A DNA stretch of 64,000 nucleotides from a phage, in the NCBI GenBank assembly GCA_014685065.1, contig GCA_014685065.1_4092.1; one strand, 5' to 3'. The first letter of the stretch is position 1. Each line of letters begins with the position of its first letter. Both the position numbers and the translations under genes were made by a program. Under the pieces are notes generated by a model. The model searched no databases and had not been told where the DNA came from. It worked only from the letters and a program-made list of their open reading frames with translations. Positions 10,738 through 11,070 of the stretch are shown piece by piece.

Positions 10738-11070
10738 ATGCTAAAATTAAATATTCAAGGTAATGTTGATTTTACTACAGCAATTCAAGATGCAATTTAC
10801 GATGGTGCTAAATGTCTTGAAAAGTTCCGTACTTCAACTGTAATGGATATTGAAGTTCATGTGAAGAAAGAGCATAAGTCTCAATACTCTGTGACTCTAA
10901 CATCAGGTAGTAAATCAGTTACTGCCGATGCAGCAGATTTATACAAAGCAATTGGTGATTCATTTGAAAAAATGGAAACTGTATTCAGTAAAGACAAAAG
11001 CATTAAATTACACCGCCGAAACCATCCAGAACACCCAGTTCTTGATGATTTGACAGAAAACGAAGAGTAA
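10738..11070 (+). CDS. ribosome hibernation factor homolog (HPF/RaiA/YfiA family)
   Basis: MLKLNIQGNVDFTTAIQDAI...LEKF...YKAIGDSFEKME pattern matches HPF family from memory. Confidence 0.6.
   Translation: MLKLNIQGNVDFTTAIQDAIYDGAKCLEKFRTSTVMDIEVHVKKEHKSQYSVTLTSGSKSVTADAADLYKAIGDSFEKMETVFSKDKSIKLHRRNHPEHPVLDDLTENEE

Follow-up and report, generated by a model that had tools for sequence, protein, structure and literature searches.

Does a jumbo coliphage encode a ribosome-silencing protein of its own, and what would such a protein do to the ribosomes of the cell that the phage infects? The question is raised by one small gene in the 64,000-nt stretch of phage DNA analysed here (the window), which, to judge by its sequence, comes from an Asteriusvirus jumbo coliphage of the 121Q type: over the 3 kb surrounding the gene it shares 99.2% identity with Escherichia phage 121Q and 84-98% with ~35 other Asteriusvirus jumbo coliphages, each with a genome of ~350 kb. 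An ATG-initiated ORF of 110 codons occupies positions 10738..11070 (+), stop codon included, exactly where the first-pass annotation had placed a 110-aa protein. Its translation contains the stretch DLYKAIGDSFEKME that this annotation cited, and is identical in sequence to 121Q gp533, whose name is used for it in what follows. The designation of 10738..11070 as an HPF/RaiA-family coding sequence draws on Pfam, AlphaFold, Foldseek and dN/dS.

It is well supported that gp533 truly belongs to the HPF/RaiA family of ribosome-silencing proteins, as a divergent, phage-borne member. The homology to HPF/RaiA/YfiA that had been claimed at the outset is borne out by the profile score, by the predicted fold and by the structural matches. 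Residues 5-87 align with positions 2-84 of the 88-position Pfam profile PF02482 (Ribosomal_S30AE), with E 4.2e-9 and a score of 37.4 bits that lies above the gathering cut-off of 23.7 bits; a profile match to the HPF family was one of the points on which the first-pass annotation had staked its proposal. With gp533 as single query, phmmer finds E. coli HPF as the best match among PDB sequences (E 8e-4), and a ten-member family profile retrieves solved HPF chains at E 3.4e-8 to 5e-5. The AlphaFold model, made from the family alignment, has a mean pLDDT of 77 (80-90 over residues 1-80) and predicts strands at residues 2-8, 36-46, 49-56 and 59-65 and helices at 14-30 and 68-94. (This is a b-a-b-b-b-a fold, and the predicted strand 2-8 followed by helix 14-30 is the N-terminal beta-alpha pattern that had been noticed in the sequence.) The best 38 Foldseek matches of the model in the PDB are all HPF, YfiA, pY or RafH chains, free or ribosome-bound. 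E. coli HPF in the 100S ribosome (6h4n_x), which is among the best of the matches listed, superposes with TM 0.82 and rmsd 1.9 Å; double-stranded RNA-binding domains of Dicer, Drosha and Staufen come lower in the list, at E about 1e-2. Secondary structure prediction and fold search together define positions 10738..11019 (+) as the part of gp533 preceding a C-terminal tail.

Its divergence also shows. The NCBIfam yfiA/HPF equivalog model TIGR00741 scores 30.0 bits, under its trusted cut-off of 40.9, so that gp533 is to be regarded as a divergent family member and not as an equivalog; the HPF model NF007780 matches weakly and no RaiA model matched. In PHROGs, gp533 falls into a family of its own (phrog_34864, of unknown function), with a weaker match to phrog_8990 (S30EA; E 2e-5). 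An exhaustive search with the profile, against 1.8 billion cluster representatives, places the gp533 family in one isolated cluster, followed by four proteins of 103-107 aa (E 1e-9 to 3e-6) and then by generic bacterial HPFs (E 1e-5 to 1e-3). Three other sets of matches were discarded. Those of phmmer to poxvirus D5/OPG117 (E 0.007) are lost in the profile search and are taken as chance. One protein of ~1,600 aa (P0011) is a tandem-repeat sequence that the profile matches spuriously in many short stretches, and is no relative; a second of similar length (P0023; ~1,600 aa), also matched as many short stretches, was set aside as spurious on length and pattern.

Conservation within the core follows the family pattern, with a few exceptions. 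The family-wide positions are, in E. coli HPF numbering, Thr13, an Asp-x-Tyr-x-Ala-Ile motif at the start of alpha-2, Lys80 and Lys87-x-Lys89, and gp533 keeps all of them (T13, D67-x-Y69-x-A71-I72, K78 and K85-x-K87); its DLYKAI aligns with D-M-Y-A-A-I of E. coli HPF. In an alignment of 41 sequences, Tyr69 never varies and Thr13 and Ile72 hardly do. HPF and YfiA contact modified 16S nucleotides through Thr53 (m2G966), Arg83 (m4C1402) and residue 86 (m3U1498). Thr53 is kept in gp533 in the MAFFT alignment. Arg83 of E. coli HPF/YfiA is replaced by Thr81 in gp533 and in most of the jumbo-phage clade, Gln84 by Val82 (Val or Ile in the clade), and Arg17 by Gln17. Position 83 is arginine in only 14 of 31 other homologs in what is a biased sample; since Arg83 is thus not universal among the homologs sampled, its loss counts as a difference and not as a disqualification. 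Among 13 distinct Asteriusvirus sequences, alpha-2 and beta-2 have the lowest segment entropy (0.37-0.42 bits) and alpha-1 is the most variable segment (0.99 bits). Most contacts of HPF with the ribosome are reported to be made by alpha-2 and the beta-strands (bioRxiv 10.1101/2025.10.07.680626), and the low entropy of alpha-2 and beta-2 agrees with that contact face.

Which type of hibernation factor does gp533 resemble? Pfam finds no second domain, and with 110 aa the protein therefore is not a long, self-dimerising HPF (~185 aa). Nor does it have the short-HPF form (~95 aa, tail-less), since it is 110 aa long and carries a 16-residue tail that is conserved in its clade. This tail, NHPEHPVLDDLTENEE (residues 95-110; 11020..11067 (+)), is predicted to be disordered, and AlphaFold assigns it pLDDT < 50 over residues 96-110. 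It ends in an acidic motif, [L/F]-T-[D/E]-x-[D/E]-E, which is kept in Asteriusvirus, in Hallingskeid, in Munch and in two of the proteins found by the profile search (P0012 and P0015), and which thus persists at 28-50% overall identity despite the predicted disorder. An extension of RaiA type past alpha-2 is present, as a disordered stretch of ~20 residues with Arg93-Arg94 at its base and an acidic end. The comparison with E. coli RaiA (YfiA, protein Y; PDB 4V8I, 4Y4O; the 113-aa sequence used agrees with the PDB) extends to a single S30AE domain of b-a-b-b-b-a fold, to overall length (110 and 113 aa), and to the 41 and 42 residues that follow the invariant Tyr in gp533 and YfiA, respectively. 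R93-R94 of gp533 align without gaps with R95-R96 of YfiA, a pair in strong contact with 16S rRNA and uS7 in a Klebsiella complex, and both C-termini are acidic (LTENEE in gp533, EEVEEE in YfiA). On the other hand, the two tails have no significant sequence alignment, and gp533 has Thr81 in place of Arg83 as well as the motif of its own clade. In the core, a closer kinship to RaiA than to short HPF is not found: the family profile matches E. coli HPF at E 7.5e-6 (29.2 bits) and YfiA only weakly, at E 7e-3 (19.7 bits). The short HPF (YhbH, 95 aa; PDB 6H4N, 4V8H) is thus the closer in its core of the two E. coli paralogues and shares with gp533 T13, T53, D-x-Y-x-A-I and K-x-K, at ~25% identity and with R17, R83 and Q84 not conserved. 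It has no tail and makes 100S dimers with RMF, whereas gp533 is tailed. With a core nearer to HPF than to RaiA, the RaiA-like reading derives solely from the architecture of the tail, which by analogy with YfiA would head to the RMF site.

The gene is old, and its place in the genome is fixed. The nearest of the four proteins next in the profile search (P0012) shares 73% identity with a protein named 'ribosome-associated inhibitor' in Munch, 7t3, SE_PL and fENko-Kae01 (these are Salmonella and Klebsiella jumbo phages), and P0014, a protein from uncultured contigs, is 28% identical to gp533. The S30AE proteins of other Rak2-like jumbo phages (Cronobacter GAP32 K4F6Q6, Salmonella Munch gp216 and Erwinia Hallingskeid CDS0479) are 17-50% identical to gp533; that of GAP32 shares its fold (TM 0.82), and those of Munch and Hallingskeid share with the window phage both neighbourhood and acidic C-terminal motif. 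Gene order in the window lineage is lysozyme, HPF, CCA-adding enzyme, NUDIX, glutaredoxin. In Munch, Erwinia phage Hallingskeid and the P0014 contigs it is lysozyme, HPF, small ORFs (one to few; more in Hallingskeid) and a CCA-adding-type nucleotidyltransferase, beyond which Munch and the P0014 contigs continue with NUDIX, glutaredoxin/thioredoxin and further ORFs. (The Hallingskeid locus, as examined, stops within the nucleotidyltransferase gene; a T4 gp13-like neck protein is also encoded downstream in a P0014 contig; and Munch differs in having an extra ORF and a terminator between lysozyme and HPF genes.) The same locus position in phages whose copies are 28-50% identical implies an old, retained phage gene, and gp533 is accordingly an old, vertically inherited gene of the 121Q/Rak2-like jumbo phages. 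Recent capture from a host was rejected in view of the ~25% identity to E. coli HPF and the phage-like GC content (34.2% for the gene, 34.6% for the window); tblastn with E. coli HPF, moreover, misses the gp533 clade.

Within Asteriusvirus the gene is, on the evidence of its codons, under purifying selection: pairwise dN/dS relative to the window allele is 0.14-0.27, similar to the 0.10-0.18 of the adjoining lysozyme gene. It exists, though, as a two-allele mosaic. In phages G17, Sharanji and SP27, identity to the window is 98-100% in the flanking genes but only 85.6% (nt) in the HPF gene, with a minimum of 77% in 10800-10900. PBECO4, in turn, has the window HPF allele at 99.4%, with strong divergence 700 bp downstream. 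The divergent patch extends from the start codon to ~11000; tail-coding DNA, the terminator (see below) and the promoter-like site that follows are 100% identical between alleles. The 18 amino-acid differences between the two alleles lie mostly in alpha-1 and the alpha-1/beta-2 loop. Diversifying selection was rejected as the source of the drop in identity: a dS of 0.58 together with a dN/dS of 0.14 argues for recombinational exchange of two old alleles and not for rapid adaptation.

Signals for expression suggest a short transcription unit. A Shine-Dalgarno-like sequence, AAGGTAGGT, is read directly at 10724..10732 (+) and ends 5 nt 5' of the ATG. Upstream, 9795..10721 (+) encodes a protein with LysM (24.5 bits) and phage-lysozyme (Pfam Phage_lysozyme, 45.4 bits) domains, which is the RefSeq CDS 121Q gp532. 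The HPF gene starts 16 nt past this lysozyme gene with no terminator between them, making co-transcription probable, and the two genes probably share one transcript. A hairpin with an 11-bp stem followed by a U-rich run at 11079..11105 (+), a predicted intrinsic terminator that would close the lysozyme-HPF unit, has an MFE of -19.2 kcal/mol (z -4.2) and was also flagged by a pattern scan; terminators are annotated at the equivalent site in G17 and after the HPF ortholog in Munch. The candidate promoter of the unit consists of two overlapping σ70-like matches at 9634..9678 (+), upstream of the gene pair (TTTACA-17-TAAAAT, 10/12, and TTGTAA-16-TATACT with TG, 9/12), in an intergenic region that is 99-100% identical among Asteriusvirus genomes. 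A near-consensus match, TTGACA-17-TATACT, at 11050-11078 overlaps the end of the HPF gene directly before the hairpin, and as a candidate promoter would drive the gene downstream of HPF. (σ70-like matches in the HPF region are not enriched over shuffled sequence, which makes the promoter evidence weak.) The T4-type late promoter TATAAATA occurs once in the 64 kb, and not near the HPF gene. An Rfam scan of the whole window gave zero matches, and other short ORFs overlapping the HPF gene found no support. A virion protein was considered and rejected: the phAPEC6 HPF ortholog, gp292, is absent from the main text of the phAPEC6 paper, including its virion MS table, and the lysozyme ortholog, gp293, was undetected in virions.

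Identification of the gene is correct and not new. RefSeq names gp533 'HPF/RaiA family ribosome-associated protein', BFVD/UniProt names the PBECO4 ortholog 'Ribosomal subunit interface protein', and several phage genome papers annotate the gene likewise; the one on Sharanji includes the gp533 ortholog in its list of translation factors (PMC11895373). Phage HPF homologs were reported in 2017 and 2019, among them that of the related jumbo phage GAP32, with equal functional speculations. What the present analysis adds is descriptive: the antiquity and fixed position of the gene, its two-allele mosaic, the RaiA-like tail with its clade motif, and the missing Arg83. Further phage HPFs are those of the rV5-like Vequintavirinae (105 aa; PMC6375957), which like gp533 are S30AE proteins of large virulent coliphages. 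A search with E. coli HPF yields 130 phage records, and most of them are of this kind. The rV5 type shares ~44% identity with E. coli HPF and clusters with sequences of gammaproteobacteria, suggestive of a more recent capture. The ~25% identity of gp533, its being missed by tblastn and its separate phrog_34864 point to an independent and older lineage. When expressed, rV5 HPF was absent from 70S and 100S fractions after high-salt washes, and it left 100S levels unchanged (Mizuno et al. 2019; PMC6375957); a literature search for experiments on phage HPFs found none beyond these in the collection of papers searched. Host ribosomes are also the proposed target of an early protein of jumbo phage PhiKZ (Gerovac et al., as cited in PMC11895373); this protein is unrelated to gp533, and Asteriusvirus has no homolog of it according to the Sharanji authors (PMC11895373).

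What gp533 does can be approached by analogy with its cellular relatives. It is a constrained member of the S30AE family, with the predicted fold and a RaiA-like architecture of single domain plus tail. We infer from these likenesses that it binds ribosomes, and consider it somewhat probable that this vertically inherited protein acts as a RaiA-like silencer of idle ribosomes and so may preserve the host's pool. In such a scheme, gp533 would sit in the channel between head and body of the 30S subunit of vacant ribosomes, over the A- and P-site positions of tRNA and mRNA, with helix alpha-2 and the beta-sheet making most of the contacts to 16S rRNA. Arg93-Arg94 would anchor the base of the flexible acidic tail, directing it toward the RMF/anti-Shine-Dalgarno site. 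Binding of tRNA and mRNA would be blocked, and idle ribosomes would be kept as silent, nuclease-resistant 70S monomers. Without a dimerisation domain gp533 itself would make no 100S dimers and, with its tail toward the RMF site as in YfiA, would leave them unpromoted or possibly oppose them. The likely pay-off for the phage, itself speculative, would be that the host's non-renewable ribosome pool is preserved, or parked, in infected cells that have lost the ability to make new ribosomes, to greatest effect in starved or slow-growing hosts or in the persistent, non-lytic infections reported for this phage group (Asteriusvirus is among the clusters richest in persistent infections). A general silencer would also block translation of phage mRNA, so that any benefit depends on conditions. 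The main counter-evidence is the rV5 HPF result; a further doubt comes from the missing Arg83. The first-pass annotation had suggested that the phage may stall or protect host ribosomes or antagonise host hibernation; by analogy these roles are plausible, and they had already been speculated upon for viral HPFs (PMC6375957).

The last of them deserves separate consideration. Gp533 bound in the HPF/RaiA site, or its tail in the RMF site, might displace host HPF or RMF as a decoy, preventing 100S formation and keeping the ribosomes of a starved host available for phage mRNAs. Mizuno et al. (PMC6375957) made this proposal for viral HPF homologs, and both a RaiA-like tail, which in YfiA complexes points to the RMF site, and the loss of Arg83, which could weaken binding and ease its reversal, are in keeping with it. 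A protein in the HPF/RaiA site, however, itself blocks tRNA and mRNA, and a RaiA-bound 70S ribosome is as inactive as a 100S dimer; the sequence, for its part, reads the same for a decoy as for simple RaiA-like silencing. On these grounds we regard displacement of host factors as rather unlikely. Alternatively, the fold might be retained without ribosome binding and serve a new role, on some other structured or double-stranded RNA or, through the acidic motif, on a phage or host protein. The absence of rV5 HPF from ribosomes (PMC6375957), the replacement of R83, Q84 and R17, the sub-threshold TIGR00741 score, the relatedness of the fold to dsRNA-binding domains (whence the Dicer, Drosha and Staufen matches) and the conservation of a tail motif in a segment predicted to be disordered all fit. 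Nevertheless, the signature positions and the basic face of alpha-2 are retained, conservation follows the ribosome-contact face, arginine at position 83 is a minority state even in the bacterial homologs sampled, and every strong structural match is a hibernation factor, so that a purely non-ribosomal function seems unlikely.

An early role in host shut-off fares less well. Gp533 would then be made early, occupy free host ribosomes and stop host translation, with phage mRNAs spared through phage factors such as IF3. Its site, that of HPF/RaiA, overlaps those of IF1 and IF3 (PMC5620043), Asteriusvirus genomes encode IF3 (reported in Sharanji) and other translation genes (PMC11895373), and σ70-like promoter matches lie upstream of the lysozyme-HPF unit. 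These matches are not above chance, though, no mechanism of selectivity is evident, and a unit shared with an endolysin-like lysozyme is unlike an immediate-early role, all of which makes host shut-off improbable. Dodecin, a small flavin-binding protein, was suggested by a Pfam match over residues 12-55 (E 2.2e-4, 21.9 bits) and by weak NCBIfam dodecin matches. The Pfam score is under the gathering cut-off of 22.5 bits, and the match spans alpha-1 to beta-3 only; no dodecin is found among the best 50 structural matches; and dodecins stack flavin on Trp, whereas gp533 contains no tryptophan. A dodecin-like function is thus highly improbable, and was rejected on sub-threshold score, fold search and absent Trp.

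RaiA-like silencing might also be one component of something larger. Genes near HPF encode a Dps/ferritin-like DUF5856 protein, a 2H phosphoesterase, a CCA-adding enzyme, a NUDIX protein and a macro-domain protein, and these could be partners of gp533 in a dormancy and damage-control toolkit. Protected and reversible hibernation of host ribosomes would then allow survival of starvation, or of a carrier state, until lysis, with the acidic C-terminal motif and the loss of Arg83 tuning binding or release. We put this forward as quite doubtful. In E. coli assemblies, no clusters have more 'persistent virulent phage' genomes than Vequintavirinae and Asteriusvirus. The same two groups are the coliphage groups known to encode HPF homologs, a coincidence that is suggestive for the toolkit.

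If gp533 does bind host ribosomes, it would be a virus-encoded switch on the translational capacity of the cell. Such a switch would bear on how large virulent phages handle starved hosts and on how they persist in cultures.

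At the 3' end of the HPF gene is a compact terminator/promoter junction (11050-11105), in which a sigma-70-like promoter of near-consensus sequence (TTGACA-17-TATACT) directly abuts the terminator hairpin; the seven Asteriusvirus genomes compared all share this junction with 100% conservation. Since the promoter lies immediately against the hairpin, transcripts from TTGACA-17-TATACT would begin within it. Only one copy of TATAAATA, the octamer of T4 late promoters, is present in the 64 kb, vs 10.2 +/- 3.6 occurrences expected from shuffles, and its count was equal or higher in 100 of 100 shuffles of the window.

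Beyond the junction lies a tandem set of three small ORFs, orf11124 (11124-11519), orf11715 (11715-12125) and orf12112 (12112-12534), for none of which a Pfam search returned a match. Alignment of orf11715 and orf12112 (41% identity over 54 residues, E 3e-11) marks these two as clear paralogs, sharing a C-terminal block of the form ...GTLP...F(I/M)(E/D)DTFGID...Y... (The likeness of orf11124 to the pair is marginal, at E 0.02.) The three ORFs are the most variable part of the neighbourhood and are missing or replaced in some relatives. Genome comparison also places further mosaic patches with sharp edges just 3' of the HPF gene, at 11533-12534. Here orf11533 is ~87% identical to its counterparts in the jumbo phages phAPEC6, CRJP21 and SP27, and PBECO4, another member of the genus, matches orf11715 at 63% and orf12112 at 81% identity; genes between the patches are 99-100% identical.

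Two genome records of ~310-326 kb, those of Salmonella phages SD-1_S14 (L020) and SD-15_S21 (L021), carry in-frame deletions within the HPF gene, of 52 and 36 codons (equivalent to window 10753-10908 and 10801-10908, respectively). They are also without the variable paralog genes, the gap being equivalent to window ~11690-12440. These gaps match the polymorphic patches exactly. They look like the assembly collapse of mixed populations; they may instead be real deletions.

Several neighbouring genes give the region an RNA-repair/ADP-ribose flavour: a CCA-adding enzyme (12670-13782), a NUDIX gene (13890-14291), a macro-domain gene (15121-15597) and a 136-residue ORF (9216-9626) in which the H-x-[ST]-x motif occurs twice (as HVSI at residue 57 and as HITV at residue 127) and which scores close to the threshold for 2H-SAK, a family of 2H phosphoesterases (26 bits vs a threshold of 27). 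The ORF at 4193-4633 has a strong match to DUF5856 (99.8 bits) and a weak one to Ferritin-like, and its 121Q ortholog is named in RefSeq as a starvation-inducible DNA-binding (Dps-like) protein. It is a second stationary-phase-type protein, 6 kb away from the HPF homolog. Farther upstream, a 218-residue ORF (1285-1941) has an HNH endonuclease domain (25.7 bits vs 21.4) and is possibly a homing endonuclease.

The list of HPF-profile matches must be read with caution. One entry, P0011 (E 3e-37), is a 1605-residue metagenomic 'protein' made up of ~29 tandem copies of a 53-residue unit; its match is spurious, the score being solely the sum of weak repeat matches.

In a study that counts 'persistent virulent phage' genomes among assemblies of E. 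coli (bioRxiv 10.1101/2024.12.31.630880), the persistent fraction is higher in Goslar- and Seoul-like phages than in Vequintavirinae and Asteriusvirus. A tblastn search with E. coli HPF as query gave no sign of HPF in Seoul-like Salmonella phages among the matches listed. The top counts in the same study are those of Vequintavirinae (68) and Asteriusvirus (54), with cluster size as a confounder of counts per phage group. These two top-count groups, the rV5-like Vequintavirinae and Asteriusvirus, are the two coliphage groups known to encode an HPF homolog.
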